Below are positions 2,541-32,212 of a DNA stretch of 58,501 nucleotides, one piece after another. The notes beneath the pieces were generated by a model. The model was not told where the DNA came from. It worked only from the letters and a program-made list of their open reading frames with translations, and searched no databases. Source of the stretch: Nemertoderma westbladi (Eukaryota > Animalia > Xenacoelomorpha); NCBI GenBank assembly GCA_032718475.1, contig JAUCBJ010002109.1:1-58501 (forward strand), in the 5' to 3' direction. Position 1 is the first letter of the stretch. Each line of letters begins with the position of its first letter. The position numbers and the translations under genes are program-made.

Positions 2541-2749
2541 GAAACTGAAACTCTGCAGTCTGTCCCACTTCCTGGTCTAAAGAGAAAATGTACAGTGTTG
2601 TGTTTGTAGAAAACGGATAGCACGTGACTGCCTGTATTGAGGTACATGTGGCAAAAAACTTAATAAGAAAAAGTTTGTTGCTAAGAAGTGCAGTAGTTCA
2701 ACTGATGATAATGAACCTGTGTTAGAAGAGCCTACTATTGTGAGGGTGC

Positions 2750-3967
2750 TGTTCGCGCTTTCAGACCTTTGGCAGTTTAACCCGCCAAATTAGAATGTCT
2801 TCTAGATATTAAATCGCTTTTTAGCCTACGACAAGTATTTGATTCACTACACTAGTCGAAACCAATCCGTGCACGATCATTCACCCGCTGGTTATACCCG
2901 GGAGATTGGGTTCGACGGTTTAATCTTATTGCTATGTAAGCCTAATGTATTATTCGACTGACAGTATTATATAATCTCTGACAATATTATTCACCTTCGG
3001 GGAATATTAACAGTTCCTTTAGGACGTGGCGCTCTATCTATATAAACAGAGCTATGACTTAAACTACTCACAACGATATGGTTTAGTTATAATTCACATA
3101 TATGGCGCATTCTTTAGGAAATGCTTCTTTAACAGACTCACTCATACACAATGCTGCACAATACTGCACACTAATCTGCCGATCTTCACTGATTTTAGTC
3201 ACATATAAAAGGAACACAGACTGACTCATGTAGGGTCTATCAAATAACATTCGATTCACTTCAAACCACTTTAACATAAGTCACAATCGTTTATCTGTAA
3301 CCTTTCTCTCTTACCTTCGGTATATCAAGAATATTGGGTTTCGGGGTTATTTATCGTTATTCCAAATATAATAATTCATCAACCATATTATGAAGAACTG
3401 ACAGTAAATAGCAGTATAAAACAACAACTGAACACTGATTGTTATGAGTTTGCAATGTTTCAGCAGTTTGTATGTAAGATCAGTTTCGTCAGGAGTCGTT
3501 AGGTATGCAGTCCGTTAAAGGATATATGTCCTTATAATTAAACCTACTAGTGTTGAGCTAAAAAGCAGAAAAGCACAAAACACTATAAAGCCGTTCTTTC
3601 GTGGCTTTGAAAAACTCGTGACTACTACTCTATACAAGAATACTAACTACACTTATTCCACGAAGCTCCCGTTCAACACAGAGAAAGAGCAGTGAGATAG
3701 GAAAATTTCAGTTCAGTAGCTCTGTGATAGGTCAAATCAAGGCTAACTCAAATTCTATTGGGAGATACAAAAACAAGGCTATGACGCAACCTTCCTAGGC
3801 TGGTTGGCCGATTAAACAGAGCCCAGATCCCTGCGTACAGCAAATCAGCCAATAAGCTGGTAGCTTGCACTATTTTAACTATAGATCCCTTTTTGAGTAT
3901 TCTAGCGACCGGGGGGGGAACTGGCCAGCAAAGCAAATGAACCAGTTATCCCACAAAAGCTTTTACA
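2750..3967 (-). repeat. 3' LTR of the BEL/Pao element (1218 bp)
   Basis: Near-identical to 17356-18572 (by eye about 5 substitutions plus one G-run indel). A short purine-rich GGGAGCGG (PPT-like) precedes it on the minus strand at 3968-3975. Confidence 0.97.
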
Positions 3968-5071
3968 CCGCTCCCAGAAAATGGGATTTAAGTCTATAAA
4001 ATATACAAAATCACAGTTTCTAAAATATAAAAATACTCTAAACAGTTAGTCTTTCTTGCGCGGACGGCGTTTACGCAGTTTCTTGAGGCTAGCAAGAGTC
4101 CTTTTCTCTTTGGGGCGAGCCACTTTATGAGGAGGGCTGTAGCTCCTAGGCGAAGGGTGCAATATGATTGCATTAGAAGGTTTGGGTTTACGGTCGGTGT
4201 CTCGTCCATTTCGATATGCTTCTCCTCGAGCTGATTTTCCTCCGCTTGTCATGGGATACGTTCGTCCAAAACTCTCGCAAAGAATAGGGTTTTCTAAGCT
4301 TGATATCTTCTTTGAGATTCGAGATTTCCCAATCGAACTGAGATAAGGCCAATTCGTTTATCGATTGGACTTACTGTTATAACTTACGTTTATCTGAACA
4401 AACGCAGATTTCTTTTTTGATCTTTATAGAATAGCGTTTAACTCGTTTCGTACAACGCTCTCCTTCACCTTGATGAAGGGTTGTATCGCATTAAACGGGA
4501 CGACCATACGGTTGGATAGTGATATTAGGTGTCCGCGTCATAATCCGGCTAGGTAAGATGGGCGGCTAGGTAGAAATCACTGTCGGAGTGTTACCGATTA
4601 ATTGTTAGGGTAGCACTAGATCTTTGAACAGTGAATACAGTCCGCGAGGATCCGCGACACCACCAGGATCGCAGGTCTGAGGTCCAACTAAGGAATGAGG
4701 AGGTTTGACCGAGTATTCCGGGACTTTGATCGTAGGTTTACTCCAGGATCGTTCGAGCCGAGTGAGCATAGGTGATACGTCAAACAAGTTTCGCTCGAAA
4801 CTCCAGTAAATATAACGAGCACAACTGTGTTTAACACAACGTTTCCGTGGATGTTTATGTCTTTCCGTTTATTAGTTGGGTCTAGGGCATTTATCGTAAT
4901 AATACTAAAGACGCACGTCTGGTAGGGGAAACGCGGGTGATATTTATTTGTTGTTACAATGCTTCTGTCAAGAATTCCAAATATACGTTGGAGTTACCGC
5001 GTTTATTTGTTTCTTTAGTGTCTTTTCTTTCGAGTCGATTTCGAATAGAAATTTCGCACTCGAATTTCAGT

Positions 5072-5455
5072 TTATGGTTCCGACTCCGCTGGGCAGGATA
5101 TATAGTCGACATAGTCCGTATTATGTAAATCGATAGGATGACCAGTAGTTAAGAAGACCATATACGTACCATTACGCTGCGTATATCGAGCGGCGAATTT
5201 TCTATAGTCCAACTCGCGCGCGAGCTGCTCTTGGGACATTGGCGGTTCGATATAACGACCATCGTCCTCCGCAGCAGTTGGACTAACGTCTCCGCGTATT
5301 AAGCTATCAACAAACGCTTGTAAAAGTAGAGTATATCGCTCCCCGATACCAAGACCATCTTCTATCAACTCCGTCATATCTGCTATATATGAGTTTATCC
5401 ATATTATAATGAGTTTATATTTAGGCGAGCGGGCGTCGCTGCCTACTCCAATCAA
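5072..5455 (-). other. Short ORF of unknown function in the 3-kb post-pol region of the BEL element; possible decayed accessory gene
   Basis: 127-aa ORF in a coding-like stretch (about 4000-5600) that has further broken minus-strand frames; no domain recognised. Confidence 0.25.
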
Positions 5456-6199
5456 CCCCCGGACAGTACGAGATCCTCAGCGCCGATGTGTCGTCGCCGC
5501 TGTACTTTCGCCAACGACGTAGCCGCACAACGACAACGACAACCGGCACAAGTCACTCGACTGTCCGTCCCAAAGGCTTAGATATACCTCAGGTTCTTAC
5601 TGGAGAGTTAGGGTTACTTTCACAATTGCGACTCGCTACTGTAAACACACCTTAGTAGTAACATTCGCCTATAAACTCACAAATACCACACACACAACTT
5701 GTCACAAATTACACACACTCGGGTCACTTGTCCGTTAGTCAATGCCTTCCAGAATGTCACTGTATTATTATGTATACTTGGATACTAGCAGTGCGCTATT
5801 TATTCCCTATGCTATTCAATGGGACAAGCTTTCTATTGTTCCTTTTAACTCAATTCTAATTCTAGCGTGGTTGTTGCTATGGTGACATTATGTAAAGCTA
5901 GCGGTAGAATTAGGGTAATTCCAATGCATACAGATCTGGGATGTTATTTAATAGTAATTCTTTAATAGTCAATGTCCTGTTTATACATGACTTTACGAAT
6001 TTTATCGGCTATTGACTATGTTGGGGAGACTTTCGTACACGCATACGCATAATAATATAAATCTCCGCTCCCTTGATCTATTAATTAATGGAATTTTGGG
6101 AATGTTATAAATTGCGTAAAATGGCAATTTATTAAATTCATTAAAAGACATGAATTTAAATTTATTCCCTGAAATTTTATTATTTGATAATTAAATAGA

Positions 6200-6515
6200 C
6201 ATATTTTGATTCTAGAACATGTCTGGGGACACAAGATCCTTAATTCTAAGAAAATTGTCTCTTTAAGAATATCGGTAAATGCTACGATATCTTAATTGAC
6301 TAGAATCGTTGAAGGATCTGAATTTTACAGATTTTGACATATTAGATTTGCAAATATTAAATAATTAATATTTGAGATGGGCACCGATTTATTCCAGAAC
6401 TTGTCTGGGGACGTTAACCACTGATTCTATAATTTGTCTTTCAAGTATATCGGTGGGTGCCACGATATCTTAATCGACTAGAATTACAGATGGTCAAAGG
6501 GTTTAACAGATTTAT
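6200..6515. repeat. Diverged ~180-bp tandem duplication in the BEL 3' non-coding region
   Basis: AGAAC.TGTCTGGGGAC...TATCGGT...ACGATATCTTAAT.GACTAGAAT occurs at about 6214 and 6396. Confidence 0.8.
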
Positions 6516-7031
6516 TTTGCGTTATACGCTACTGTTAAAGGGACATCACGCTACTATATGTATTATTTAATATACGGTATGAGAGCAATATCGCACGAAG
6601 CAATGTCAGTGTGAAGAGGCAAGTCGTTTCCAAGGTCTACCCAGAGCTTGGTTTAGCCGAGACACAAGGATCTGAACTTTGCATTCCTAATACTCTGCCT
6701 ACCAATAATACTTGAATATAGTAGTGGCTTTATTGTACTTTAATAAGTACGGACATTTCATCTTACCGTAGTTACGTATTTATAATATAATACGGACAGT
6801 AAGGAAAGAGAAAAAATAATTATTTCTTCGCCGTCGCACTAAATATAATATAAGTAATTACGTACGTAATAAACACGAATATATTGCACTATTCTACTAA
6901 ATAATCGCTAAATAATATTCTACTAAATTAAATAAAACGATTATAATAAAATTACATAGTAATACATACATAAATATAAAAATGATAAAATAATATAAAA
7001 TAATAGAGTCACACGCCCACTCCAAACGATA

Positions 7032-10000
7032 TTAAGTTGGGGAGTCCCTAGATGTCGGTTGGATTAGGGAAGTGGTCGTGGGAAGAGTTTCTTGCCTTCC
7101 ATAGTTTCCGGAGAGCTCTCTGTCTCTTTCCAGTAAACATAAACGACCCACTGGGCGATTGAGCTGTTGAGTCTCAAAGACTATCCCTGGTTTCTTAAAG
7201 TTCCGCCGCATGACGACGAGCTCTACTGATCGCACCAAACCATCGCTCGAGATATAAGTCTCGATGATACGTCCTGTTTGCCATCGCTTACGTGGGAGAT
7301 CGGGGTCCACAATAAGCACCATGTCTCCAGCGCTGACGTTTTCTCGCTGCGCAAACCACTTAGTTCGAAGTTGTAGCGTGGGCAGGTAATGTTTCTCGAA
7401 ATGGTCAGCGAAACGACGGGATAGCAACTGCATAAGTTGCCAGGTTCGACGGCAGTACTCGTCTCCGTCTGTGATCTCCGATCGTGGGAGCATGGCTACG
7501 GGCTTCTTCAGTTGAAAATGCGCGGGTGTTAGCACTTCCAGGGAATCAGGATTTGAAGAGACTGACATAAGCGGTCTTTCGTTGAGATAGGCGGCGATTT
7601 CCTCCATTAACGTCCACAATAATTCGTCGGTGAGATAAGCGCGACAAGGCACAATAAAGTGGAACGCAGTCTTCACGCTCCTAATCAATCTCTCCCAACT
7701 TCCTCCCCACCAAGGGGCGTCGGCGGCGTTGAAGGTCCAGCTAGACGCTGTTATCTTTAGCTGATCGTCCACCTGTCTTTTGTTCCAGTCCTTCACGTAA
7801 GCTTGTATTTCGTTGTTGGCGCCAATGAAGTTCGTTCCCTTATCCGATCTCATCGTGTTACTGGTTCCGAAACGAGCGATCTGTCGTCGTAAACTCAACA
7901 CGAAGCTGTTGGTGGATAGATCGTTTACCATATCGAGATGGATAGCTCTACAAGTCATACAAACGAAGATGACACACCATCTTTTAACTATAGTCCGGGC
8001 ACGATATACTTCAATAGGGCCAAATAAATCCACACCGGTATTAGTAAAGGGTGGTTCATAGAAGCTTACTCTTTCCCTAGGTAATTCTGCCTCTCGCTGT
8101 GTTAAAGGCCTACTGAATGCTTTCCTACAGGGTATGCAGTTCCTAAGAACTTGGTTCAGAGCCCTACGGGGTTTATAAAAATAGTAGCGAGTTCGAATTT
8201 CGCTCAGAACTCGTTCTCTACCAGCATGGTACAGTTTGCTATGAACATCTACAATCATTTTGATTTGTATATCAAGATTTCTAATGAGTATGGGAAACTT
8301 AGTGTCAAAGGATAACGGGGCGTTAGTGAGCCTACCTCCAACACGTATTAACCCATCTATCATGGTGCTAGAGAAGCGATCCCTTAAGCGCATCTGCGGA
8401 TTTCTTAACAGCAGGAAATACTTATCGGAATCTTCATAACATTGTAGGAGTCTCAGCATCTGTTTGTTGGTTTCATCATGCTCCTGGTGACTGATCTTTT
8501 CCTTTAGAAACCTGTCGGGTATCTTGTATGTAGGAAGATCTTTAACAACATGGACTCGTGCAGATGCTGATGGGGCATCATCACTATTGGTCTTTGTCCC
8601 GGAGTAACGATGATGAAAACATCGTTTCAAATAAGTGACAGCTTTACAGAGCCGATTCCAGGAGCTGTAGTGACGTATCGCTCTCTGCAAGAGAGGTGAG
8701 AGTCCTTGCGCGATATCTGGTATTCCAGATTTCCAATCCTTGTCACGGATTTGCAAGACTTCTTTGGTCGTGGCGGTGGGTTTCTGATCTAAAGCATCTG
8801 CTCCGGAAGTAAATAATACAGATAGATCAACCGCAGGTTTAAACAACTTCGATTTACTCGCTCGAGTTTTGGGTTTAACTTTCTCCGCTCCCTTGGCCTG
8901 TCTGATCTCTGCTGTTGTGAGGTGGGGAGGCCATTCTTCTTCTTCTTGGTAGAGAAAGTCGGGTCCTCCTAACCATTCGGGAGTATTTACCAATTCCTTT
9001 GGAGTCGCTCCTCGGGAAGCGATGTCTGCTGGATTAATCGTTCCGGGGCAATGTCTCCATTGGTCCATCGTCGTGCGACTAAGTATGATGGCTACCCTGT
9101 TGGTAACGAAGACGCTGAACTGACAGACTTCATTGGTTATATACTCTAACACGAGTAAAGCGTCGGTCCAATAGACAGTTTTCTCTAATGGATAGTCAAT
9201 CTGTTCTGTTACATTCCGGCCGATGGCTGTAGCGTATAGAGCCGCCTTCAACTCCGCTCGAGGAACTTTCAACTTGTTGTTGATTAATGCCTTAGAAGTA
9301 ACCAAGGCGACTTTGATTCCATCCGGAGTTTCCACTCTTAGGTAGGCTACTATACCTATTCCCATATCGCTGGCGTCTCCAAACACATGGAGTTGATAGG
9401 AATACGTAGGGAGAACATGACCAAAATATGAACGGGAAATTATAAAATCCTCGATAGCCGGTTGAGAATCTTCCCATTTCATCCACTTCTTTAATAATTC
9501 TCCCTTAAGTGGATCGTCCCATGAGTGGTTTTCAAGCCACATTTGTTGCACCAAACTATGAGCAATCAATATAACTGGGCTAATAAATCCCAATGGATCA
9601 AAATAAGTGCTCAGTATACTTAAACAAATCCGTTTGGTTCGAACTGGATTATCTCGCTGTTTTAGTTGGAAAAACAGGATATCTCTCTCTGTGTCCCATT
9701 TCAAGCCGAGTGTCTTGGTTTCTGGCAGATCATCTTTGATCAAATCGAGATCTTTCGCTCCTCGATCCTCCGCAGGGATCGACTCCAGAAACTCACGGGA
9801 GTTGATGGTGAATTTCGTTAATCGAAACCCACCTCTTTTTAAGCACTCTACCGTTCCTTTAGCGACCTCAATGGCTTCCTCAACTGATGGTAGGGACTTC
9901 AGATTGTCGTCCATGTATATGTCCCTCTTGATGTTGTCGATCACTTCCTTAGAGAAGGCCTCTCGGTTGTCCTCTGCAGTGGTACGCACTACCGAACAGG

Positions 10001-13000
10001 CATTGGAAGGGCTTGAGATTATCCCAAAGGCCTGGATGGTCATCCAGTACTCCACCGATTTCTGGTTGAGGTCTCCTTCGGGCCACCATAGAAATCGTAG
10101 GCTATCTCGATCCCTATCCAACACTTTGACTTGCAAGAACATGCCTTCTATATCGGAGGCGAAAGCAATCGAATATTGTCTCAATCTTAAAAGAATTCCC
10201 AACAAAGATTGAAGTAAGTTGGGTCCGGGTAACAATTCAGAGTTAAGGGATTGACCCATGTAAAGAGCGGAGCCATCAAACACTACTCTCACTTCATTGG
10301 GTTTACCGGGTTTAGGAACGTAATGGTGAGTTAAATAATACGTTCTTTCAGTCACAGGTGTTTCTTCCGGTACCCTCTCCGCGTATCCCTTATTAATAAA
10401 TTTTTCCAGCTGTGTTTGATACATTGCTTTAGCTGAAGAATTAGCCGTAAGGCGTCGATGGAGTTGCGCGATTCTTTTTTCCGCCAAAGGTCTGTTATTG
10501 ATGAACTTCGGTTCTTTCTTGCGAAAAGGTAAACCGACTTCATACCTACCTTGATCTTTGATGAAACGTGTAGTAGTCTCTTGGATCTGCTTGGCCCTTT
10601 CCTCTTCCACTGATAAGGCCTTATCGTAGGAATTGGGCTCTACTGCCTCTTGCGTAAAGAATCGTACAGCATGTTCATCTCGAGTCTTGGCATTACAACG
10701 CTCAATGACGTCATTTAACTCGTCGTTATAAGCTTCTCGTTCAGATGGATAAAGAAGTTGACATAAGTTCACTTGGTTTTGCCAAGCCTCGTTTTCCTTA
10801 AGGAGATCGATAGTATTCTCCTCGTCAAAAAGCTGGTGAATGTCGTTGTTATCTGAGGAGTATGGAGTTCCCTCAGTTAAATCGTCTCCTTCACTAGTAT
10901 CATCTTCCCATTCACTCACCTGGCAAACTCGCTCTTGCGGTAGTCTTTCTCTGAGTGTTCTACGGGAAGGTCCAGTAAAGTACCAACCTACTCTAGTTCT
11001 TACCGCATAGGTCTGTAGTGGCTGCGGTTGAGCAGGCCGTTTCTCTAATGTCTCCAGCGCCTCATGCGCGTTTTGGCCGATGAGTATTTGCACTCCAGGA
11101 TAATCAGTCTGAAATCGAGGTATGTTAAGATGTTGGATGCTCTCATCCTCGTCCCAATTATAAAGGTCTGCTTGGGTAGTAGCGAAGTTCTTTATAGCTA
11201 CCATTTTCACTGACCTGATGCTATGTTCTCCTAGTTCGTCCTGGGGGGTGGACAACGCTCCTACATAATAATCCGCTGTTATTGTGGATTTCCAGACTTG
11301 CATAATGCCTGACATGTTTAGCGTAGTTCGGAACTTGGGTTGTCCAGCAAATATGTCTTCGGCTAGCTCTTGGTCGATGAATGTTCCTGTACTACCGGAG
11401 TCAAGGAGGGCGTTCACTACGTAACTCCGTTTAGGTCCGTGAAGCCTCACCTGTACCACAGGAAACTCTCGGATCCCTACATTGGAAGATGGCTCTTTCC
11501 CAGATGGTTGTCGCTCAGAAGTAGTTAGAGTGAGGTCGCTGTCTGTATCTTTTTCATATGTGAGTGCTCGATACACTGCGGTATTTATCAGGTAACAGGA
11601 TTCGTTTTCGTCGGAGAACTCATCCGTATAGAATCCTTCCATCTCAGATTGGTCAGTGTCGTTCACATCACTGAATTGGACATGTAGTTCGGAATCACTT
11701 ACCTGATTCGGAGTATTTCGCTCGAATTCAGCGTGCAACAAGATATGATGTTTCGCACCACACTTAGCACACCTTATGTCAGAGAAACAGGTTCGCCGTT
11801 GGTGTCCTTGTCTGAGGCAATTATAACATAACCGCTTATCCCACATGACTTCGCGTCTCTCCGTTAATGACTTCTTCAGGAATTCATCACACATGTTCAA
11901 ACGGTGGGTCCCGTCACACAGCGCACATTTCGGTTTGATGTTACTCACCTTATTCTGAGTCACATTGTGTACACTTGCTTTTTCTTCGGGCTTTCTCACC
12001 TGAATTCTCTTGGGAGACGTAGGAGGAGTTTTTCTTACCTGTTCTCTCCTGTCATTTGTTCGAGACTTGAATTTACTCACCTGATCTTTAGGCATTTTAT
12101 TCACGTAATAAGATCTATCAGTGTCCTTCCCGCTATCTTCTCCTTGAGAAGTCTGGCTTTCGCCGTCGTCTGTGTAACACACTGGTGTTACCCTTCTCCT
12201 AGAGACGGGTTTTTCACTTACCTTGTTTTCCGGTGTCTTCTCTCTGGATTGCTTGAGGAGTTGCAATTTCACTTCTCCATCCAGGAATGACATGAGATCT
12301 GCCATGGTAGGGTCTCGTCGTTGTTGTTCCATCATATATAGTACTTTCTTATCCCAGCGTGTGCCTACCCCACCTTTCGGTAAAGTAGAAGCCACAGCTC
12401 CAATGACCATAGAACTTTGGTATTCATGAGACTTACCTAACCAATCTAATTGTCTACAGACCTCTTGAATCTCATCGGAAAACTCTATTATCCCACTGCT
12501 GATGAACTTTCTGGGCGCTACTAATTTTGCATATAAATACTTAGCGATATTATTCCTATTACCATACCTGATGTTTAGTGTATCCCAAACTTGTCTTAAT
12601 CCGTCTGGATGTCCAATAAACTTTAACGCCATTAACTTGGGAGATCCTTCCAAGCACTCGATGAGGAATCTAAGTTTCTCTCCATTAGATAGTACAGAGT
12701 TCTGTATGTTATCTTTGTAATATTCATTAAAAGGTAACCATTTCATCTCATCTCCATTGAATTTGACTATCTCTCCCACCTTCACCGCTTGCCGGGCTTC
12801 GGTTCTAGCCATTTGACGCGTAAAACTTTCTTGGGCCATCGTGTTATTTAATATCGAGTTATCGGTATATAAATTTCTCGGATTATGATCAGTTCTATAT
12901 GGGATATCATTATCAACAGGTCTATAATTACCCTTAATAGGGTTCACTATAGGAGTTTCTACTTCGCTAGCAGTATAGATGCGTGTAGGCTCCACACCTT

Positions 13001-13700
13001 GCGCATGTGTTACTTCAGACCTAACAGGTTGACACATTGTTACAGGGGGTGGTGATATACCCCTTTTTGTGTTTACTAATTTATCGCGCTCTAGCGCGAT
13101 ACTTTGCTGCACTTCTTGCAACTCTAGTCTACTTTCCCTTACTGTGCCCTTAAATTGTTGAACAGTCTCCTGCATCTGCCCGAGCAGGAGATCCATCCCC
13201 CGCCGTCTCTCGTCCACCCATTCGACCGCCGAAGCGGGAGTCGCCAACGATGTAGCGGGCGGACGAGGGACAACGGGCGACAAATTATGAATATTTCGCT
13301 CGGGGTCCAGGACCTGAACTGTCTCCTGGGCAGTTCTACGGGGCACAGGTAGCTTAGTGCTATGTAGAGGGAATTTAGAGGTAACTTCAGGGAGCACAGA
13401 TGTGTCTATCACCGAAGGGGTGATTTCAAGAACAGGCCTAATTATTTCAGGCTCATCTACTATAGTAGGGAGTCTTTCTATTTTAATTATTTGGTCTGTG
13501 GGTTCTGTACTGCCTAAGTTGGTGTTATTTAGTTGCCTTCTAACAGCTGGAGGCAAATCAGGCAATTTCTGACGGTGGAATGTTCTTTTACGTCTGCTTA
13601 GGCGAGATCGATTTCCTCCGCCTTCAATGTCGGTGGTATCGCCTTCCTCAGATGATGTATAACCTTGTCGTTTGGGAGTAGATCGATTCATCATCTGCAT
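7032..13700 (-). CDS. gag-pol: BEL/Pao Gag-Pol polyprotein (2222 aa, uninterrupted)
   Basis: Three BEL-type Zn knuckles (CALCDGTHRLNMC, CYNCLRQGHQRRTC, CAKCGAKHHILLH); protease LLDSGS; RT ASDIEGMF...YMDD; RNase H FGDAS / PRAELKAA / WTDA; integrase H-H-C-C, GVDLFGP, SDKGTNF, WERLI. Confidence 0.97.
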   Translation of the reverse strand: MQMMNRSTPKRQGYTSSEEGDTTDIEGGGNRSRLSRRKRTFHRQKLPDLPPAVRRQLNNTNLGSTEPTDQIIKIERLPTIVDEPEIIRPVLEITPSVIDTSVLPEVTSKFPLHSTKLPVPRRTAQETVQVLDPERNIHNLSPVVPRPPATSLATPASAVEWVDERRRGMDLLLGQMQETVQQFKGTVRESRLELQEVQQSIALERDKLVNTKRGISPPPVTMCQPVRSEVTHAQGVEPTRIYTASEVETPIVNPIKGNYRPVDNDIPYRTDHNPRNLYTDNSILNNTMAQESFTRQMARTEARQAVKVGEIVKFNGDEMKWLPFNEYYKDNIQNSVLSNGEKLRFLIECLEGSPKLMALKFIGHPDGLRQVWDTLNIRYGNRNNIAKYLYAKLVAPRKFISSGIIEFSDEIQEVCRQLDWLGKSHEYQSSMVIGAVASTLPKGGVGTRWDKKVLYMMEQQRRDPTMADLMSFLDGEVKLQLLKQSREKTPENKVSEKPVSRRRVTPVCYTDDGESQTSQGEDSGKDTDRSYYVNKMPKDQVSKFKSRTNDRREQVRKTPPTSPKRIQVRKPEEKASVHNVTQNKVSNIKPKCALCDGTHRLNMCDEFLKKSLTERREVMWDKRLCYNCLRQGHQRRTCFSDIRCAKCGAKHHILLHAEFERNTPNQVSDSELHVQFSDVNDTDQSEMEGFYTDEFSDENESCYLINTAVYRALTYEKDTDSDLTLTTSERQPSGKEPSSNVGIREFPVVQVRLHGPKRSYVVNALLDSGSTGTFIDQELAEDIFAGQPKFRTTLNMSGIMQVWKSTITADYYVGALSTPQDELGEHSIRSVKMVAIKNFATTQADLYNWDEDESIQHLNIPRFQTDYPGVQILIGQNAHEALETLEKRPAQPQPLQTYAVRTRVGWYFTGPSRRTLRERLPQERVCQVSEWEDDTSEGDDLTEGTPYSSDNNDIHQLFDEENTIDLLKENEAWQNQVNLCQLLYPSEREAYNDELNDVIERCNAKTRDEHAVRFFTQEAVEPNSYDKALSVEEERAKQIQETTTRFIKDQGRYEVGLPFRKKEPKFINNRPLAEKRIAQLHRRLTANSSAKAMYQTQLEKFINKGYAERVPEETPVTERTYYLTHHYVPKPGKPNEVRVVFDGSALYMGQSLNSELLPGPNLLQSLLGILLRLRQYSIAFASDIEGMFLQVKVLDRDRDSLRFLWWPEGDLNQKSVEYWMTIQAFGIISSPSNACSVVRTTAEDNREAFSKEVIDNIKRDIYMDDNLKSLPSVEEAIEVAKGTVECLKRGGFRLTKFTINSREFLESIPAEDRGAKDLDLIKDDLPETKTLGLKWDTERDILFFQLKQRDNPVRTKRICLSILSTYFDPLGFISPVILIAHSLVQQMWLENHSWDDPLKGELLKKWMKWEDSQPAIEDFIISRSYFGHVLPTYSYQLHVFGDASDMGIGIVAYLRVETPDGIKVALVTSKALINNKLKVPRAELKAALYATAIGRNVTEQIDYPLEKTVYWTDALLVLEYITNEVCQFSVFVTNRVAIILSRTTMDQWRHCPGTINPADIASRGATPKELVNTPEWLGGPDFLYQEEEEWPPHLTTAEIRQAKGAEKVKPKTRASKSKLFKPAVDLSVLFTSGADALDQKPTATTKEVLQIRDKDWKSGIPDIAQGLSPLLQRAIRHYSSWNRLCKAVTYLKRCFHHRYSGTKTNSDDAPSASARVHVVKDLPTYKIPDRFLKEKISHQEHDETNKQMLRLLQCYEDSDKYFLLLRNPQMRLRDRFSSTMIDGLIRVGGRLTNAPLSFDTKFPILIRNLDIQIKMIVDVHSKLYHAGRERVLSEIRTRYYFYKPRRALNQVLRNCIPCRKAFSRPLTQREAELPRERVSFYEPPFTNTGVDLFGPIEVYRARTIVKRWCVIFVCMTCRAIHLDMVNDLSTNSFVLSLRRQIARFGTSNTMRSDKGTNFIGANNEIQAYVKDWNKRQVDDQLKITASSWTFNAADAPWWGGSWERLIRSVKTAFHFIVPCRAYLTDELLWTLMEEIAAYLNERPLMSVSSNPDSLEVLTPAHFQLKKPVAMLPRSEITDGDEYCRRTWQLMQLLSRRFADHFEKHYLPTLQLRTKWFAQRENVSAGDMVLIVDPDLPRKRWQTGRIIETYISSDGLVRSVELVVMRRNFKKPGIVFETQQLNRPVGRLCLLERDRELSGNYGRQETLPTTTSLIQPTSRDSPT

Positions 13701-13712
13701 ATTACTAGCTTT

Positions 13713-15107
13713 TTACTGTTTATTTATGCAGTCTTGATTCTCCTGAATGTTTTCCAATTCTAATTGAGTGGTTTCTTCAGTCGCTCTCCGTTCGGCTTCT
13801 GCCACTGCCTCCGCCACTTTTGCCTCTGCCGCTGCCTCTGCCGCTGCCGCTTTTGCCTCTGCCGCTGCCTCTGCCGCTGCCGTTTTTCTTTCTGCTTCTG
13901 CAGCTGCCACTGCTGCTGCTACTGCCGCTGCCTTTCGGTCTTCTATACGTTTTTTCTTTACTTGTTCTTCTTGGACTCGTGTCAGGCGGAGTTGTTCATC
14001 AAATTTAGCCTGATTCGCAGCCCTCATTTCCACATCGATGGCATCCAACACAAGCTTGGTTCCTTCACTATTAGGGTCAAGTCCCTCTAACCTTCTCCTC
14101 AACTCGTCATCACCTAAAAAACGTTGATAGTCTGACAGATAGATGTCAATGGCATCCCTCTTATGCGGTTTCTCTGCCGTCGCTTCACTTTCCACTTGGG
14201 AAAAAGTAGCGTCCGTTGATTCTCCATGGGTTGAGCGCTCCTCCAACTGAGCTTTCCACTGAGCTGCTCCTTGAACCTGGCGATTCACTCGTTGAAACCA
14301 AGTCTTTACGGCAACTTGCAACGTCGTGTCTTGTCTTCTTTTAGAAGCCTCCTCAAAGGCTGATAAGATTAGCCTGATTCGTATAATTCTTTCTCTAACT
14401 TGATAAAGCAGTTGTCCCTGCTCTTGAGGTCCTTGAGGTTGTTGTAACAGTTGTTTTTCTACTCGCTCCATAGAGCTGAAGAATCCTTGTGCGTATCCGG
14501 CTGCGGACCTCTTCCATACAGCTGGATCGATGGTTTCCTTGGCTACTCCCATCCGGTGTATGTCTTCCCAGGCAGCTTCTGATAAATCAAACGGGAGTCC
14601 GGGTCCGGGGAAGTTCCATTGCGACTCGACAATAGACTTCAGTTCTTCCCTCGTGTATCCCGCATAACTATCTCTAGTTGATCGTTGACTTCTCGACCAA
14701 TCGATCTGGTGTTCTTCCACCGCGATCAATAACCTAGTGAGTACGGCTGCAGGAAGGATGAGAAGGGGATCCGTATAAACCGCATCCGTCATCTCTGCTC
14801 CGCGCTCGGGTGTCAGCTCTACAGTATCCTCACTACTGGAGCTGCTGGGCCGCTGAGTAATAAGTTCTTGACTCGCGGGTTGTTGCTGTTCTGCTGCTGC
14901 TTGGTCCCGCTTGACCTGAGCTCGAGTGCCTATGATAGACCTACGATGTTGGACCAGCCTAGGTTCTTTTATTATTACTGGAGGGATGACCTTCCTCACA
15001 GTGGGAGGTGAACTGAACTTACGACTAGATGGTTCTACACCTCTATCTGAGTCGCAGATAGTTACATCTAATAGACTGTCTGACAAGTTCTGCTTAGTAT
15101 CAGACAT
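13713..15107 (-). CDS. Upstream ORF of the BEL element (464 aa, helical, Ala/Glu-rich C-terminus), in frame with gag-pol
   Basis: Long ATG ORF inside the element; ends TAA-AAA-GCT-AGT-AAT-ATG directly into gag-pol. Confidence 0.75.
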   Translation of the reverse strand: MSDTKQNLSDSLLDVTICDSDRGVEPSSRKFSSPPTVRKVIPPVIIKEPRLVQHRRSIIGTRAQVKRDQAAAEQQQPASQELITQRPSSSSSEDTVELTPERGAEMTDAVYTDPLLILPAAVLTRLLIAVEEHQIDWSRSQRSTRDSYAGYTREELKSIVESQWNFPGPGLPFDLSEAAWEDIHRMGVAKETIDPAVWKRSAAGYAQGFFSSMERVEKQLLQQPQGPQEQGQLLYQVRERIIRIRLILSAFEEASKRRQDTTLQVAVKTWFQRVNRQVQGAAQWKAQLEERSTHGESTDATFSQVESEATAEKPHKRDAIDIYLSDYQRFLGDDELRRRLEGLDPNSEGTKLVLDAIDVEMRAANQAKFDEQLRLTRVQEEQVKKKRIEDRKAAAVAAAVAAAEAERKTAAAEAAAEAKAAAAEAAAEAKVAEAVAEAERRATEETTQLELENIQENQDCINKQ

Positions 15108-16471
15108 GTTTGTGAGTACAGTTGAATGCCTACTGCTATATTACAGTCTAAGCAAGTCTAGTAATTCAGTATTAACTGCTAGCCTAGTAATTAATTACCG
15201 ATATTGCTACTCAATGTAGAGTGATATATATATAATATATTAGAATACCGGTATGCTTATATTATATATAAGTATTATTACAGACTAGGTTTATCTCAGA
15301 ATACCGGTATAATTTTAGCACAAATATATATAAATATATAATAGGCCTATCGGGAATACCGGTATACAGCTTACAGTTTGTAGTATATATAATTCTGGAC
15401 TAGAATTAATTACAAGTACCGGTATAATTTCAGCCTAAATTTATAGAAATAAAGATAATAGGCCTATCGTAAATACCGGTATATCAATTATTTTAAATAA
15501 TTGAATTTCCGAATTTTAGGGTTACTTTGTTACTTTATTACCGTTATTTGAGCAGTAGTCCAACTGATATTGAGACCTAATGGTTATATGGTAGGCCTAC
15601 TATTTATAAATCGTTAGATTTGATTTATAATATATATATACCCGTTTTAATGGGTTTTGTCAATGTTTGAAATAAATGTTATTATTTCTGGGGGGTAATC
15701 ACTGCACAAAGCGGTACGCTTTCAGTGAAGTGTTACTTATAAGACACTAAAACAAATAATGCTAATTTACCTAAGTTACTTAATACTACAAATTACGTAC
15801 GATTCCGATTGAGATTACAATCTCTAAATAAACACAAAAATTTACAAAAAAAACACAAAATACAAATTTTTAGGGTAATTTTACAAGAAGTCTACAAACC
15901 AGCCTAACAAAGGGTTAGAATCTGGTTATTACAACGAACAGGGTTCTACGGTATTTGAAAATAATAAGTAGTAGTAAATACACTGCGTTGTCCAGATAGG
16001 AAAATACCACCGCCTGACGACCTATAGCCGTATCGCTATAGGTTCTACGTTATGTATCACGGAGTGTTCCTACCTAGAAGCTAATAGAGCTAATCGAAGG
16101 TGCCTATCAACCACTTTACAACACAAATATAATGCCTACAATAATTACTTTCGGAAAGCACTGTACACTAAACCCTAAATTAGGTACGAGTACTTGTACA
16201 ACAGATAATCAGTAGTTAAATATACTTGAACAGCTAAAAGAACCACGGCATCTGCTGGAGTAACCGGTGCACAAAATCACCAGTCTTTACCTACGCCAAG
16301 CAGCCCGTGTAGTACCGGGGTTAATTTAACTATAACGGTATGTATAACAAACACAATTACTGTAGGAACAAACTTGGGGAATGAATGTTGCGGATAATCG
16401 CATAAACTCTGAATAATAAATATTACGCTACTCTTACAAACTACTCAAACAAAATGCAGACCAAACACTGA

Positions 16472-16990
16472 CAGACTACTATCAAGCCTAAACAAACTAC
16501 GGTATATGCAGACTCCGAAATATTTAGGTAGTATGCGTTCTAACCCAGTAGTACGACTTATTCTTTAATTGGGGGTTTACCTTACAGCATTCGCTGCCCC
16601 TACTTCCTAACCGTTCTTTATCGGACAAGTGATCTACACACGCTGCAATCCGTTCAGACCCAACAACAGCCAGACAACTATCTAGCCTACAAATTATCTA
16701 AATAAAATTATACGCTACCCGTACAGACTTACACAAACAAAGTACAGACTAAACGATGGCAGACTACTCTCAAGCCTAAATAAACTACAGGACATGCAGA
16801 CTCCGAAATAATTAGGTAGTATGCGTTCTAACCCAGTAGTACGACTTATTCTTTAATTGGGGGTTTACCTTACAGCATTCGCTGCCCCTACTTCCTAACC
16901 GTTCTTTATCGGACAGGTGATCTACACATACTGCAATCCGTTCAGACTTAACAGCAATCAGACAACAGCTCAGCCTACAAATTGTCTGTA
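16472..16990. repeat. ~288-bp-period duplication in the BEL 5' leader
   Basis: Core GCAGACTCCGAAATA...CTGCAATCCGTTCAGAC is nearly identical at about 16508-16658 and 16796-16947. Confidence 0.9.
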
Positions 16991-17355
16991 TAATCTGATC
17001 AGGCTTACACGTCTTCTGTTCAATACTGGCCTACAAACAAATAAAACTTGACAGAAATAAGTAAAATCTCAATAAAAAACCAGGGCTGCAGTCCCTGATT
17101 AATTACTAAGACCTACCGGTATACAACAATCAAATCGAATAATACTAATGTACTTATACGGGAAGTACCGGTTAGGACAGTTAGGCCTACGGACCTACAG
17201 AAGTACCGGTTCTGGCAGTTGGACCTACGGGCCTACAGCAGTACCGGTTCTGGCAGTTGGGCCTACTGACCTACAGAAGTACCGGTTCAAGTTTACCGGT
17301 TGACCGGTACTTTCAACTTTATTGCTTACTGCAATAAAGAAGCTATATCCTTTAA

Positions 17356-18572
17356 TGTTCGCGCTTTCAGACCTTTGGCAGTTTAACCCGCCAAATTAGA
17401 ATGTCTTCTAGATATTAAATCGCTTTTTAGCCTACGACAAGTATTTGATTCACTACACTATTCGAAACCAATCCGTGCGCGATCATTCACCCGCTGGTTA
17501 TACCCGGGAGATTGGGTTCGACGGTTTAATCTTATTGCTATGTAAGCCTAATGTATTATTCGACTGACAGTATTATATAATCTCTGACAATATTATTCAC
17601 CTTCGGGGAATATTAACAGTTCCTTTAGGACGTGGCGCTCTATCTATATAAACAGAGCTATGACTTAAACTACTCACAACGATATGGTTTAGTTATAATT
17701 CACATATATGGCGCATTCTTTAGGAAATGCTTCTTTAACAGACTCACTCATACACAATGCTGCACAATACTGCACACTAATCTGCCGATCTTCACTGATT
17801 TTAGTCACATATAAAAGGAACACAGACTGACTCATGTAGGGTCTATCAAATAACATTCGATTCACTTCAAACCACTTTAACATAAGTCACAATCGTTTAT
17901 CTGTAACCTTTCTCTCTTACCTTCGGTATATCAAGAATATTGGGTTTCGGGGTTATTTATCGTTATTCCAAATATAATAATTCATCAACCATATTATGAA
18001 GAACTGACAGTAAATAGCAGTATAAAACAACAACTGAACACTGATTGTTATGAGTTTGCAATGTTTCAGCAGTTTGTATGTAAGATCAGTTTCGTCAGGA
18101 GTCGTTAGGTATGCAGTCCGTTAAAGGATATATGTCCTTATAATTAAACCTACTAGTGTTGAGCTAAAAAGCAGAAAAGCACAAAACACTATAAAGCCGT
18201 TCTTTCGTGGCTTTGAAATACTCGTGACTACTACTCTATACGAGAATACTAACTACACTTATTCCACGAAGCTCCCGTTCAACACAGAGAAAGAGCAGTG
18301 AGATAGGAAAATTTCAGTTCAGTAGCTCTGTGATAGGTCAAATCAAGGCTAACTCAAATTCTATTGGGAGATACAAAAACAAGGCTATGACGCAACCTTC
18401 CTAGGCTGGTTGGCCGATTAAACAGAGCCCAGATCCCTGCGTACAGCAAATCAGCCAATAAGCTGGTAGCTTGCACTATTTTAACTATAGATCCCTTTTT
18501 GAGTATTCTAGCGACCGGGGGGGAACTGGCCAGCAAAGCAAACGAACCAGTTATCCCACAAAAGCTTTTACA
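17356..18572 (-). repeat. 5' LTR of the BEL/Pao element (1217 bp)
   Basis: Direct repeat of 2750-3967; duplicated small ORFs at 3026/17632 and 3083/17689. Confidence 0.97.
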
Positions 18573-19495
18573 GGTGCCACAAAGCAAACGTTCTACATGG
18601 GCTACCTGTGGTACTGTAGGCTGTTCCAACCATGTTGGAAAAGGAAGTACAAAAGTGTAGACCCTGTTTGAATATTCAAAATAAGAAATATTGTTAGTAT
18701 GTATAATGCAATAAAACACTGATAAATAAAGTAAATTTAAAGTATTGTAGAAATTGCATGAAGCATAAACGCCGGCTTGAAAGAGAAAGTTTATCAGAGA
18801 ACAGTAATGTTTCTCTGAGTGATAAATCAATAAAAATCTTGCCTGATACACCAAAGAGAACTTGCAAATATTGCAGCAAAATTCTTACCCATAAATTTGT
18901 GCGAAAATTCTGCAACAAAGTTTGTATGCAGACACAAACAATGGAAGGTAATAGTTCTGAGAGGGTCGTTGTAGAGGATACTGATAATGTCCCTACCAGC
19001 AGTGCTTAGAAAGGTATTTTTGACCAACAGTCTATTTCTAGTGCCATCACTGAAGTTATGATGGAGTTGTATCCTGATCGCGATCTTTTGCACCTAGAAA
19101 TCCTAATGAAATCAGAGATTATCTCAAAAACATTATGAGAGACAACATGCCATGGTTGCATATGCCTATGTCGGGTGAAGCTGAACTTAAATGTCTTGGT
19201 AAAGAAAACTATTATAATGCAGCCCAGGACAAGATGATGATAGATGGCAATGGCTTAATGATGCTGTTTTCGATTAATTGAAGAACTTTTTCCATATACT
19301 GCGATCATGAATGTGTTGTTTACATTCAAATTACGTCAACAGAGTTTTGATGAACTGAGAGCAGTAAAATATGTAGCCCGGCGGTATCTTACAAGGCCCT
19401 CTCAGACATCTCATACTCTCGGCCCTCCAAATAGTAACATTATTAATTATTAAAGTCAATAAACTATTAATAATTATAATTTATTAAATTAAATA

Positions 19496-20174: not shown

Positions 20175-21729
20175 CCCTATTAGTACCGGGCTATAAAATG
20201 TTGTACAAATACCGGGAGGGGGTCATATTGACCCCCCCCCTCTAAAATCTACAAATATTTACGAAAACGTCTGATTTTTTGTTTGTACGTAGGTATCACT
20301 TGTCTGGATCCGACCGAAAAAAAAAATTTTCGAAAAAATGTACTGGGGTGGTTATATTGCAGCACCAAAATTACAAGTAGTGCACAATTTTCACAAAATT
20401 TGAAAGTTACATTTTCGGCTATTTATTTTTCAATACAGGTTTTCTGGGGTGCAAAATACATTTGGAAAATATTTAAAAATGATATGATCACTATAAATGG
20501 TTGTTTAGTCCTCTCTGCGTAGGAAAAAAATGAAAAAATCAAGTAACCAGCACTTTTCAGTTAGAACACAAAATTTTTAATTCACTTATACGATGCTATA
20601 AATTCACATTTTCAGGTTTTCGAGGGCGCTGATTCTAATGGAATACATTTCTAATATGCCTGATCATTGCTACTTGTATTTTTCGGCGTAATTTTCAAAT
20701 TTTGGTGCTAGCACCAAATTTCGTACTCATCACCAAAAAGTACAAGTTTGCGATGTCCAGTGCTGTTTTTATTGATTCCATCGGATTCAGGACCCTCATA
20801 AACCCGTATAACGCAAGAAACAAGGTGATACTATCTACTTATCAATTTGCATATTTTCCAAAATTTGGTGCTGGCACAACAATTTTCACCCACCGGCGAA
20901 AAATACAAGTTTGAGAACTCTTATGAAATTTTTACTGATTTCATTGAATTCAGAACCATCACAAACCCGTATAACACAAGAAACAAGGTGACACAATCAA
21001 TTGATATATTTGATGGTTTTCAAAATTTGGTGCTAGCACCACATTTTGCACCCACATCCGAAAAATACAAGTTTGAGATGTCTAGTTCGATAATTATGTT
21101 TTCCATTGAATTCAGAACAGCCATAAACCTCTTAAAACGCAAGAAATAAATTGTCACAAGCAATTTTGTATATTGAATGGATTTTCAAAATTTCGTGCTG
21201 GCACCAAAATTTGCACACAGCACCGAAAAATACAAGTTTGATACGCTTGGTGCAACTCGTATATATTTCATCGAATCCAGAACCCCAAAAAACCCCAATT
21301 GCGTAAAAAACAAGTTTCAAACAATCAATTTACAAAATTGACTTATTTCAAAATTTGGTGCTGGCACCAAAATTTGGCACCCATCGAAAAAAACAAGTTT
21401 GAAATTTCTAAATCAATTTATTTGAATTCCATCCAATTTCTAACACCAAAAAACCGGCGTAAATCAAAAATAGAGATGTTACAATTCATATTTAATGAAA
21501 TGTAATTTTCAAAAAACGTCTCAAAAAAAAGTGCCAAAAGTAGGGTTAAAAAATGGTGCTATAACTCGAAAAGTACCCAATATTTTTGAAAACGGTTTTC
21601 ACTACCATGAAGACAATAGATTTTTAGGAAAAGTCATAAAATTTCAGATTCCCAACTGCGTTTATTTCAGAATTATAATAAAAAAACCACGGGAGGGGTC
21701 ATATTGACCCCCCCCCGGGTTTAATAGGG
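20175..21729. mobile_element. Non-autonomous piggyBac-like DNA transposon (1555 bp)
   Basis: TTAA TSD (20171-20174, 21730-21733); CCCTATTA...TAATAGGG termini; GGGGTCATATTGACCCC subterminal motifs; internal degenerate repeats; no transposase. Confidence 0.85.
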
Positions 21730-21733
21730 TTAA

Positions 21734-23385
21734 GATGCGTCTCAAGAAAGTCATGGGTTGTCCACCATGCTTATTCACTCCATGAGGCTGCCAAAGTACA
21801 AGATTATGCACTGGCTGGTCCTCACGGCGAAAGCAATGTCCTGCAAAGCGGAGCCGATTTTGTTCTAGTGTCAAGCTTGGGGGAACCAATGAGACACCTC
21901 CAATGTTATATAGTGTCTGGTTGGAGATGTGTGCATTGTACTTGACACAATGTACCCGGCGTAGCATTCTTGTGAATGTGCCATCCAGAGATTTGGTGTC
22001 CTCAGCAGTTAGAGCCCAGCATGGACTCCCGTAGAGGAGTACTGGAACTACTGCTGCTCTAAATAATCGGACCTTAAGTTTCCGATTAATTCTAGGTGAC
22101 TTCCAAATCCTAGAAAGCCTATTCAAGGCTGCCCATGCCTTTCCCTTACGTATTCGAAGGTCCTCACCTGACTTCCGGATCCATGATCCCAGGTAACAGA
22201 AGTCGTCCACATGCTCAAGCATACCATCCTTTGAGCTTATGCTCATCCGATCAGAGACTTGCTGAGGACTTTCAAAGTTAACTGTCAGAATTTTGGTCTT
22301 TCTGGAGTTAATAAAAAGACCAACACTAGAAGCAGCATGTTCTAATGAGCTGAGGAGCCGCTGGGCTCCCTCTAATGATTCTGAGAGTACAGGAGTACAG
22401 TCATCAGCAAAGTCTAGATCAGTTAGGTACTTGGCAGGATTTCCTCGACTTCTGGAGCCAGTAGGTGGAGTTATCATCACCCCATCATCATTATGATGAT
22501 CTAAGGACATGCGTAGAACATAGTCAACCACAATAATGAACAAGAATGGTGCAAGTGTGTCTCCTTGGAGGACGCCCCATAACACTTCAAATGGTTCTGT
22601 GTCACCGTCAACAGTAGACACAAATGTTGTTGAACCATCGTATACTGATCTGATTGCTGCAATAATTTCATCAGGAATCCCATATAATGAAAGTATGCTG
22701 AACATACGTGAGCGAGAGACTGAATCAAAGGCCTTGAAGAAATCAACAAAGATAACAGCCAGATGCCTGTCTTTCTTTTTTGATAACTCTTCAATTATCC
22801 TTCTAAGTGCCAAAATGGGCTCCATGGTCCCACGACCTTTACGGAACCCATTCTGATTTCCACGTAGCAGTCTCTCAATGGGATCCCTGATGCGATTTAA
22901 TAGAATTCTATTGTATAGTTTTGCAGCAATCGAGATCAATGAGATTCCCCGAAAAGAACCATAGAGTGTTAGGTTGCCTTTCTTGGGAACTGGCACCAAC
23001 TTATTTGTTTTCATTTCTTGTGGGACTCTTGTTGTACGGTACATGTCTACTATGATGGGATAGATGAGCTTTAAACACTCAGGTATTTTAAAGACCTCAG
23101 GGGGAACACCATCTACTCCACTGGCACGATTGGTCTTAATGCTCTTTGCAGCAGCATTCACTTCTGCAAAGGAGATATCGCCAATGGGAATATCTGGGAG
23201 TACAGACTCAGACACTTTTACTTCTATAAAGTTATCAGGCAATACCCTGTCATTATTGAGGAGCTTTTCAAAGTGGGCTTTCCAACCATTGAGGCGATCG
23301 GCTGGTGATTCAGCCTTAACCTTGGTGGTTGGTTGGCTTTTCCGCCCAGTAAGCAGATTGATCGATTTCCATGCCTGGGATGATT
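21734..23385 (-). pseudogene. RTE LINE reverse transcriptase (C-terminus continues at 20070-20170)
   Basis: PVPKKG, FRGISL, QNGFRKGRG, FVDFFKAFDSV, GVLQGDTLAPFLF, LDFADD, FCYLGS motifs. Confidence 0.93.
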
Positions 23386-23714
23386 GCCAAAAGTCTAAAT
23401 TAAGCATAGGTGCTGATAAAACAATGCCAACATTATAATTTCACGTAATTTCTATATTACAGGGGTTTTCGAATATGCTTAATGCAATGGAAATCTTTAA
23501 ATTTTGTGAAAGTGACTAGAAATGGTGCTTTTCTGGGGTGCAGCTAACACCAAAAATACAAGATCCTCAAAAATTTTGAAAGTCACCATCAAGATCCGTC
23601 ACCTTAAATGACCACAACTCGGAATATAGAGCTACTGAATACAACTAATGATATTGCCAACTATTGTTTTTAGAGATCAAAAGAATAGTCATGAGTTAAC
23701 GTATTACACTGTTC

Positions 23715-24180
23715 TGCAGGTTAATGGAGTTCCGGGATGTGCAGGCGATCCGGTACGGCAGCCCCATGGTGGCGGTGCCGAGTCGGTGCGACGGGTGCGG
23801 GGCCGCCTTCGATCTAAACCACAGTTTAAATTGTAAAAAAGGTGGCCTCGTAATCCAAAGACTGAGCTCTGGGATGTGGTCAGTGATCTCGCGGCGCCGC
23901 GCATTCGGGCCCCGGAACATCACCCTCAAGACGGTGGTCCGCGAACAGCAGGGAGTAGACGAAGCAGCAGGTCTTGGTGTGACGTGGGGATTCCGGGTGC
24001 GCAAATCCTGAAGACCCAGGCGTTGGTTGATATTCGGGTTGAAAACCTTGGCGCCGGGCCATATGCTGGTCGCACTCCAATGTCTGTCCTCGAGTTGGCC
24101 GAAGACCAGAAGAAGAGGCTTTACACGGACACAGTGACGGCCCAACGGGGCAACTTCTCGCCGCGTTGCCTCCTGCGACA
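23715..24180 (+). mobile_element. CRE-type non-LTR fragment (CCHC knuckle plus REL nuclease), frameshifted
   Basis: EFRD...RYG...[25 protein letters not shown], then ALVDIRV...AEDQKKRLY...FSP. Confidence 0.75.
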
Positions 24181-24274
24181 GAGCTCTCATGCCGCAAGCG
24201 AACCATCTTCTCCATGTGGTGTTAAATCGATATCCCCATGGCTTTCATTTCTGCTTAACCCTTTAACCTTTGCT

Positions 24275-24810
24275 TAAACCCGGGGAGGGGGGGGGGGGTG
24301 GGTCCGTATGACCCCCTCCGTGGTTTTTTTATTATAATTCTGAAACAAACCCAGTTGGGAATCTGAAATTTTATGACTTTTCCTAAAAATCGATTGTCTT
24401 CCTAGTAGTGAAAACCGTTTTCAAAAATATTGGGTAGTTTTCGAGTTATAGCACCATTTTTTAACCCTACTTTTGGCACTTTTTTTGAGACGTTTTTTGA
24501 AAATTACATTTCATTAAATATTAATTGTAACATCTCTATTTTTGATTTACACCGGTTTTTTTGGTGTTAGCAATTGGATGGAATTCATATAAATTGATTT
24601 AGAAATTTCAAACTTGTTTTTTTCGGCGGGTGTCAAATTTTGGTGCCAGCCAAATTTTGAAATATGTCAATTTTGTAAATTGATTGTTTGAAACTTGTTT
24701 TTTACGCAATTGGGGTTTTTTGGGGTTCTGGTTTCGATGAAATATATACGAGTTGGACCAAGCGTATAAAACTTGTATTTTTCGGTGCTGTGTGCAAATT
24801 TTGGTGCTTG
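24275..24810 (-). mobile_element. Truncated inverted copy of the right part of the piggyBac-like element
   Basis: Reverse complement of about 21200-21720. Confidence 0.88.
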
Positions 24811-25349
24811 CATCTTATTATATCTACACATATTATATAGAAACACTTACATCATAAACACCATAGTGTTGTAATTTAATCGGAGCTTTTTTGACGCCGC
24901 TTCTCCTTTCTTATCTCTTTTCTTTTTTACACCGTTTGATATGTGTAGTATCACTGCTTCGATGAAGGTTCCGTTGATGTCCCTCCCCTGGCTACTACTG
25001 ATTTTACTTCCGTGGGAAGATTATTCATTATTAATTATATGATAATGAGATTAAAGATTAAATGAGATTAAGTAAATATTTCTTAGTATTGCTAATTCTT
25101 AGTATAAATACAGAAAGATCTACTGTATAAATACAGAAAGATCTATTGTATAAATACAGAATGATAGGCATCATATTGCCCTGAATTGATTACACCACGC
25201 CGATATATTTATATGTTTAAGCTTTAATATGTAATGCGATCGACACTGCCAGATATTTTTCAGCTATTTATTCCTTCGGCTAATAGATATTAGTTTTCTT
25301 AATGATTTTATGAAATTCTTATAATCTTACTCTTATTTTTTTTTCTGTA

Positions 25350-27908: not shown

Positions 27909-28589
27909 ACTGCTTTATTGCGACTATAGTTGGTTATTTGTAAATGACTTGAAAGTGATAAGAACTCAAAATTGGATGAGTATACCGGTACCTTCAGTTA
28001 CTTGCACTGGCCAGTAGGCTACTGCTTTACTTGCAGTTCAAATTTCCCTCTCTACAGCTTCTACACCTTCTACATACAGTTATATAAAATAAAACTGACA
28101 AATATCTAATAAATATTGATTAATTATATTTTGATGTACACGTTGACTGACAGACAGACAAACGGACAGACAGACAAACTGACAGAAAAACAGACATACA
28201 GACTTAGTGATTAGAAAATTCCAAACAAGAAAAAGTACATCGAGAACAATAAAAATCACAACAACAAATATTTCAGATTGCTTATATGCTTTTTAAGCAA
28301 AGATGGACAGACAGACAGACATACAGATGGAAAGCCTGCCATTACTCGAGAAGTAAAAGAGATCTCGCTAAGCCGTTTCCAGATTTGAAATCCTCATTAA
28401 ATTCTGCTCTAGATGAAATGAAAAAACAAAAATTGAAAATTTTGACCTGAGGGGAGGTGAACCCCCCCCCCCCCCCCTTAATAATGTATGTAAACAAAGA
28501 GGTACTAATAGAAAGTATAAGATGTCTACTCCAAAACTTATGTTGACACAATTCGATAAAGAATTTTATTATTTACATTTGAAACCGAA

Positions 28590-32210: not shown

Positions 32211-32212
32211 TT

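Follow-up and report, generated by a model that had tools for sequence, protein, structure and literature searches.

Elements of the BEL/Pao type (family Belpaoviridae) are described by the ICTV as 4.2–10 kb long, with an 18-nt site for the 3′ end of tRNA-Arg or tRNA-Gly (PMC8742986) and LTRs of 0.2–1.2 kb; the consulted part of the report on the BEL/Pao element Achilles gives a tRNA-Tyr site (PMC4580426). Self-priming is known from Tf1 of Schizosaccharomyces pombe, in which, according to the sections consulted, pairing involves the first 11 bases and RNase H cleavage falls between bases 11 and 12 (PMC7175516, PMC5341516, PMC4600332). A complement of at least 10 bp starting 0–5 bp after the LTR has been used as a rule for the prediction of self-primers, in the consulted part of the source for plant Tcn1 chromoviruses and TAR (Houba, Osr-1) Copia elements (PMC6317226); these belong to plant Gypsy/Copia lineages and have contiguous primers, and no BEL/Pao case appears in that part. 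Neither self-priming in BEL/Pao elements nor a primer built by splicing was found described in the literature searched, outside the scope of which lay most subscription journals, Repbase Reports, GyDB and supplements; the supplements of PMC6317226, PMC3118150 and PMC6238403 may bear on the novelty of BEL/Pao self-priming.

The element described here occupies the minus strand from 18572 to 2750 of a 58,501-nt stretch of Nemertoderma westbladi DNA (the window), and represents one LTR retrotransposon of 15.8 kb. Its sequence suggests, with good probability, that it primes reverse transcription with RNA of its own LTR and not with a tRNA. Its features are listed in Table 1.

Table 1. Features of the window element and their positions in the window.
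Feature	Position	Strand	Remarks
Target-site duplication, upstream copy	18573..18577	.	5 bp
5′ LTR	17356..18572	-	1217 nt, TG..CA
Pyrimidine tract ending in AG	18164..18185	-	top-scoring acceptor-like site in the LTR, 13.6 bits
Possible second helix with bases just past the primer site	18135..18140	-	predicted duplex -17.0 vs -12.8 kcal/mol
Candidate self-primer	18121..18132	-	complements the primer site exactly; 3′ end predicted at 18121; putative function
Internal bipartite complement of 18111–18150 (competing partner)	17686..17748	-	-31.0 kcal/mol, 0/100 shuffles
Candidate polyadenylation signal ATTAAA	17525..17530	-	AATAAA absent from the LTR
Candidate primer-binding site, non-tRNA	17344..17355	-	offset 0 from the LTR end; TTAAAGGATATA
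Tandem repeat in leader	17162..17288	.	38 nt x 3.3 copies
Tandem duplication in leader	16408..16994	.	288 nt
Extra upstream ORF	13713..15107	-	first ATG 15107; shares the gag-pol frame, from which one TAA separates it
gag-pol frame	7032..13712	-	2226 codons; triple Cys-His box, DSGS protease, YMDD RT, DAS RNase H, integrase
3′ region, no long ORF	3976..7031	-	3 kb; 5 short ORFs scanned, no Pfam match
Purine-rich tract adjoining 3′ LTR	3968..3975	-	GGGAGCGG
3′ LTR	2750..3967	-	1218 nt, TG..CA; second 12-mer copy at 3515–3526
Target-site duplication, downstream copy	2745..2749	.	5 bp

Identity and anatomy of the element

Between the LTRs, protease, RT, RNase H and integrase follow one another in the BEL/Pao order, together with the purine tract. 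The gag-pol frame is free of stop codons over its whole length and matches Peptidase_A17 (1e-34), DUF1759, DUF5641 and Integrase_H2C2 in Pfam; the Cys-His knuckles are located at residues 596, 629 and 648, DSGS at 771, YMDD at 1266, DAS at 1446 and the integrase after 1818. The LLDxG and LIG motifs and the triple Cys-His box, which define Pao-like elements in the consulted part of PMC554778, were all found, in addition to Pao-type Pol and Gag domains. The BEL/Pao assignment made in an earlier, sequence-only reading of this DNA is therefore upheld: judged by its predicted proteins, the element is BEL/Pao. The best protein-search matches carry the same Pfam families; the closest relatives show 38–44% identity (one 33%), and those named come from sea urchins, corals, pipefishes and a tunicate.

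The triple Cys-His box, the PR-RT-RH-IN order and the TG..CA LTRs are shared with the Belpaoviridae Tas, Sinbad and Achilles, and the protease motif ALLDSGS is identical to that of Sinbad, whereas the third knuckle is not of the form given for Suzu in the consulted part of its description (PMC554778). The element departs from the Belpaoviridae description in its size, its extra upstream ORF and its lack of a tRNA site (the last taken here as a described trait, since the family is filed on Pol relatedness), and its LTR lies at the upper edge of the described range.

Alignment of the LTR pair gave 1212 matches, 5 mismatches and one 1-nt indel (99.5% identity). The LTRs are thus near-identical, as had been noted before, which points to a recent insertion.

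The upstream ORF is Ala/Glu-rich at one end, and no homologue was found for it in Pfam, in the Atlas or in a protein search restricted to lengths of 255–812; it may be a readthrough extension or a separate accessory gene. The 3′ region, where an env gene might sit, holds only the short ORFs and a 100-nt internal repeat.

Other repetitive DNA was observed elsewhere in the window. Two satellite arrays are present, one (38 nt x 66 copies, 10–2540) 200 bp from the 3′ end of the element and the other (27 nt x 34 copies) at 40434–41348. The region 21165–24843 contains an RT ORF (21662–23440; RVT_1, weak DUF6451) flanked by long inverted arms with 88–95% complementarity, and is adjoined by a 163-nt tandem array. 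Mutator-like transposase pieces and an ORF matching endonuclease and Pao-peptidase were found at 26275–27914 and 30873–32456, and these may be nested fragments.

Complementarity at the LTR end of the window element

The first 12 nt after the 5′ LTR (17355–17344) are the exact reverse complement of 18132–18121 within it. This match at the LTR edge, on which the sequence-only reading was built, was reproduced, and no TGG-initiated site is present nearby, the first TGG lying 274 nt downstream of the LTR. With 12 nt at offset 0, the match falls within the published rule for self-primers, and it is like the LTR-complementary sites of about 11–12 nt that adjoin the LTR in Tf1/Tf2 of S. pombe, Tj1 and the Tf1/sushi elements of Ty3/gypsy, as far as these are covered by the descriptions consulted. 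The self-primer is located 765 nt from the LTR end, compared to 46–324 nt in the relatives examined below; the predicted strong-stop product would have a DNA part of 765 nt, or 777 nt with the 12-nt primer. Pairing with the primer site is predicted to be extendable upstream to about 18140.

The element nevertheless belongs to another superfamily than Tf1/sushi, with a Pao-type Pol, a loop of 765 nt and no chromodomain family match in Pfam. It is like Tf1 in the way it would work, yet is not a member of the Tf1/sushi group.

A 12-nt match in the 1217-nt LTR is expected by chance at 2.7–3.2e-4 (three composition models). Empirically, matches of this length were observed at 18 of 111,784 other positions of the window and at 2 of 13,377 internal positions, one of which is the site itself. 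When in-silico GT-AG joining of the LTR was allowed, two of 300 random internal positions reached 12 nt with any GT and none (0/300) with GTRAG.

These values bear on the explanation that a local deletion removed a normal tRNA site from this copy, the 12-mer match being fortuitous. Its nearest relatives are just 36–45% identical and no sister copy of its family was seen, which leaves room for such an event; the chance expectation of about 3e-4, the near-identical LTRs and the unbroken gag-pol argue against it. Since the relatives too are without a tRNA site (only one of 28 families has TGG among its first 8 nt), a local deletion, which the sequence-only reading had named as a possible refutation, is considered highly improbable.

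Primer sites and predicted LTR introns in related elements

Relatives were collected with a polyprotein alignment including 36 matches, which led to 79 metagenome loci; LTR ends could be mapped from 5′/3′ repeats or from sister loci in 15 families. Scans of viral contigs revealed no relatives. In one locus (L016), identical LTR-plus-leader copies at 1–2561 and 12277–14837 suggest tandem elements with a common LTR, or an assembly repeat.

Contiguous exact matching explained only two of the 15 mapped families, F040 (10 nt) and F076 (11 nt), and duplex energies with the unspliced LTR were mostly not significant; the matching was therefore repeated with a GT-AG junction allowed within the LTR. This analysis revealed perfect complements of 10–15 nt at offsets 0–5 in 12 more families, with 4–10 nt contributed by exon 1 and 5–8 nt by exon 2. 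Each family was compared with 300 random internal positions, scored identically to the real site. Fourteen of the 15 beat this null (at most 7/300 positions reached the observed length with any GT); in 12 of them the complement exists only across the junction, and in two it is contiguous. The remaining family, F020, fails the strict null (232/300), yet has 13 contiguous nt from offset 6. For F067 and F020, the LTR ends were revised after inspection. F051 was represented by L053, because L051, with a G-U pair, scored 9; the L057 site, which scored 8 when paired with the LTR of L069, was dropped as that of a diverged member of the F049 family. Since one core is common to four spliced families, the 12 represent nine independent types.

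A later scan provided a held-out set of 14 more BEL/Pao loci (L080–L093), animal-type contigs inside bacterial genome bins that are most likely host contamination. Four of the five with mappable ends passed the self-complement test: L082 and L084 with spliced 11-mers (1 and 2/300 with GTRAG, 8 and 4/300 with any GT), L087, whose LTRs are 100% identical, with a contiguous 11-mer (0–1/300), and L092, of the same family as F009, with a spliced 12-mer (0/300). L088 failed, with 8 nt (18 and 87/300); in both of its LTRs, a single mismatch interrupts what would be an 11-nt match. Copies with a mismatched site or junction (L088; L057, L069) may tolerate one mismatch or be mobilised in another way.

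For loci with unmapped ends, a blind search gave spliced matches in 8 of 35 loci compared to 0 of 35 on the reverse strand, and under looser rules in 14 of 40 compared to 3 of 40; the control is imperfect and not composition-matched, because pyrimidine tracts are scarcer on the reverse strand. Contiguous matches did not exceed the control in this search (12/40 vs 11/40); this applies also to those of L023, L035 and L062, which are plausible in position.

The splice sites in the 12 spliced families were picked by complementarity alone. The donor is nonetheless GTRAG in 11 of the 12, compared to 25 of 577 GTs, and, ranked by pyrimidine richness among 15–61 AGs, the acceptor comes first in 8/12 and within the first three in 11/12. 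The predicted introns measure 71–366 nt, and the joined form pairs 4–11 kcal/mol better than the best unspliced side in these families. The junctions thus resemble real introns in sequence, the splicing itself being a prediction.

Primer sites were compared in 28 families (16 mapped, including the window element, and 12 with inferred ends; L036, with its LTR in two pieces, was excluded). The complement abuts the LTR end at offsets 0–6 in all of them. The primer-site cores comprise 24 different 10-mers with a mean identity of 46%; the window element shares the edge pattern of its relatives, T as the second site base (27/28) and C after the primer (22/28). In the spliced families, sites scored 10–15 against their own junction and 2–8 against those of others, except within the four-family group with the common core. 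Between the sisters L082 and L084, differences occur at two of the three terminal bases of exon 1, together with the two site bases that face these, and the score falls from 11 to 8 when their sites are swapped. The covariation between site and LTR that had been suggested as a check is therefore found: each site pairs with its own LTR, and the sites differ. The self-priming reading gains from this and from the self-complements of the mapped and held-out families; what it had missed is that most relatives would need splicing.

The diversity of the sites and their tracking of their own junctions argue against a common host primer. A shared tRNA T-loop-like primer (GTTCGAA core) was rejected, as only 5/28 families have the identical 10-mer, for which their own junctions provide a match. 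Priming by a host RNA fragment, such as a half tRNA or another small RNA, with the LTR complement secondary, has a precedent in half-tRNA priming without TGG in Copia lineages (in the consulted part of PMC6317226). The relative F011, the single family with TGG in the first 8 nt, also fits such a primer, but bears a 14-nt junction complement as well. In the window, no Rfam match was found in 15000–18700 and no tRNA gene was detected, both searches being blind to a 12-nt match. With 24 different cores, each matching its own LTR, a host primer appears very unlikely.

In an RT-RNase H tree (FastTree; 34 sequences, no true root, named BEL/Pao reference elements absent), a contiguous family is sister to a spliced one in two cases, L040/L043 (support 1.0) and L035/L015 (0.998), the LTR ends of L035, L043 and L015 being inferred. 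At least seven changes of primer form are required, for which, on this unrooted tree, repeated intron loss via reverse transcription is the simpler reading. The window element is an outlier with a branch of 1.1 substitutions per site, and has the contiguous form, as in a few scattered relatives. This form may have arisen when a spliced 3′ copy was reverse-transcribed, or an intron may never have been present. TACTTAC-like words are repeated near the LTR start in L015, L023, L035, L043, L062 and L040; they read as splice donors on the opposite strand and occur in one clade, to which the majority of contiguous-primer families belong.

Predicted folding and proposed mode of priming

In the Tf1/sushi group, a stable U5-IR-like stem is reported to hold the primer duplex. 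For the window element, the outcome predicted under this criterion flips with the ends of the construct. A duplex probability of 0.93–0.99 was predicted only for 5′ ends at 18132–18148 in RNAs truncated at 17200 or earlier; for 5′ ends from 18152 upstream it was ≤0.03, or 0.45 at best, in the shortest construct of another series. With 100–300 nt more leader the duplex costs 9–17 kcal/mol and is lost for every start tried, the primer being taken by a competing helix at 17686–17748. Pairing between this region and 18111–18150 is possibly a folding switch. Since the outcome depends on the construct ends, folding can neither serve as proof of the duplex nor pin down the start. A TATAA at 18142, 10 nt upstream of the 12-mer, would, if used, place the start downstream of the 12-mer.

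An upstream spliced exon is possible in the window element, as judged from its sequence. The acceptor-like site at 18164 is within the range of the relatives' sites (3.4–17.2 bits), and the best donor upstream of it, at 18253, is weak (5.8). Removal of the intron 18253–18164 lowered the duplex cost in 4/6 constructs, never to zero. An intron excising the competing helix, with a donor at 17920, was rejected: this donor is outside the top five, downstream acceptors reach at most 2.6, and a gain was seen only in constructs cut at 17300.

The mechanism that we propose follows Tf1 for fold-back, cleavage, extension into U5/R and strand transfer (consulted parts of PMC7175516 and PMC5341516); the start site and cleavage, demonstrated in Tf1, are predicted for the window element. 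The transcript would start at or slightly upstream of 18132–18148, and its 5′ end would fold back onto the primer site. The RNA would then be cut near 18121/18120, as by RNase H in Tf1, providing a 3′ OH, from which RT would copy U5 and R before jumping to the 3′ R. In the spliced relatives, removal of the LTR intron at the 5′ end would assemble the primer, while the unspliced 3′ LTR copy would hand the intron on; a primer spanning an intron is absent from the Tf1 descriptions consulted. By eye, poly(A)-signal-like hexamers are located 3′ of the acceptor in several relatives, so R would remain for transfer.

The pairing might also be real without being a fold-back of the 5′ end, if the RNA circularises or dimerises, or if priming is by the 3′ LTR copy or, in trans, by a separate short LTR transcript. 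The presence of the 12-mer in the 3′ LTR too, the position of the TATAA and the predicted instability of a long fold-back with longer leaders are consistent with this. However, the match abuts the LTR end in all scored families, at the position required of a primer, and no competing site is found at this position. Moreover, since both LTRs of the spliced relatives keep the intron, the 3′ copy templating a new LTR would have to be unspliced. Such arrangements are therefore regarded as unlikely, and priming by fold-back of the 5′ end is preferred.

On a broader scale, it seems moderately probable that a wide animal BEL/Pao lineage is tRNA-free and builds its primer by splicing. An LTR intron would split the primer, so that only the spliced 5′ end could pair, while the unspliced 3′ copy could not compete and would pass the intron on; the intron would have been lost repeatedly. 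The window element would then be a giant, deeply diverged contiguous form, in which the anti-primer helix at 17686–17748 may act as a gate instead.

If these interpretations are correct, self-priming would extend to a third LTR superfamily, one that the ICTV profile calls tRNA-primed, and the failure of tRNA-based primer-site searches on these elements would be explained. Their base-exact predictions (junction reads and the strong-stop RNA-DNA joint) could be checked in existing transcriptomes. Such elements would presumably be beyond the reach of tRNA-fragment control, and host splicing would assemble a replication primer, a checkpoint for which no counterpart was found in the literature searched.
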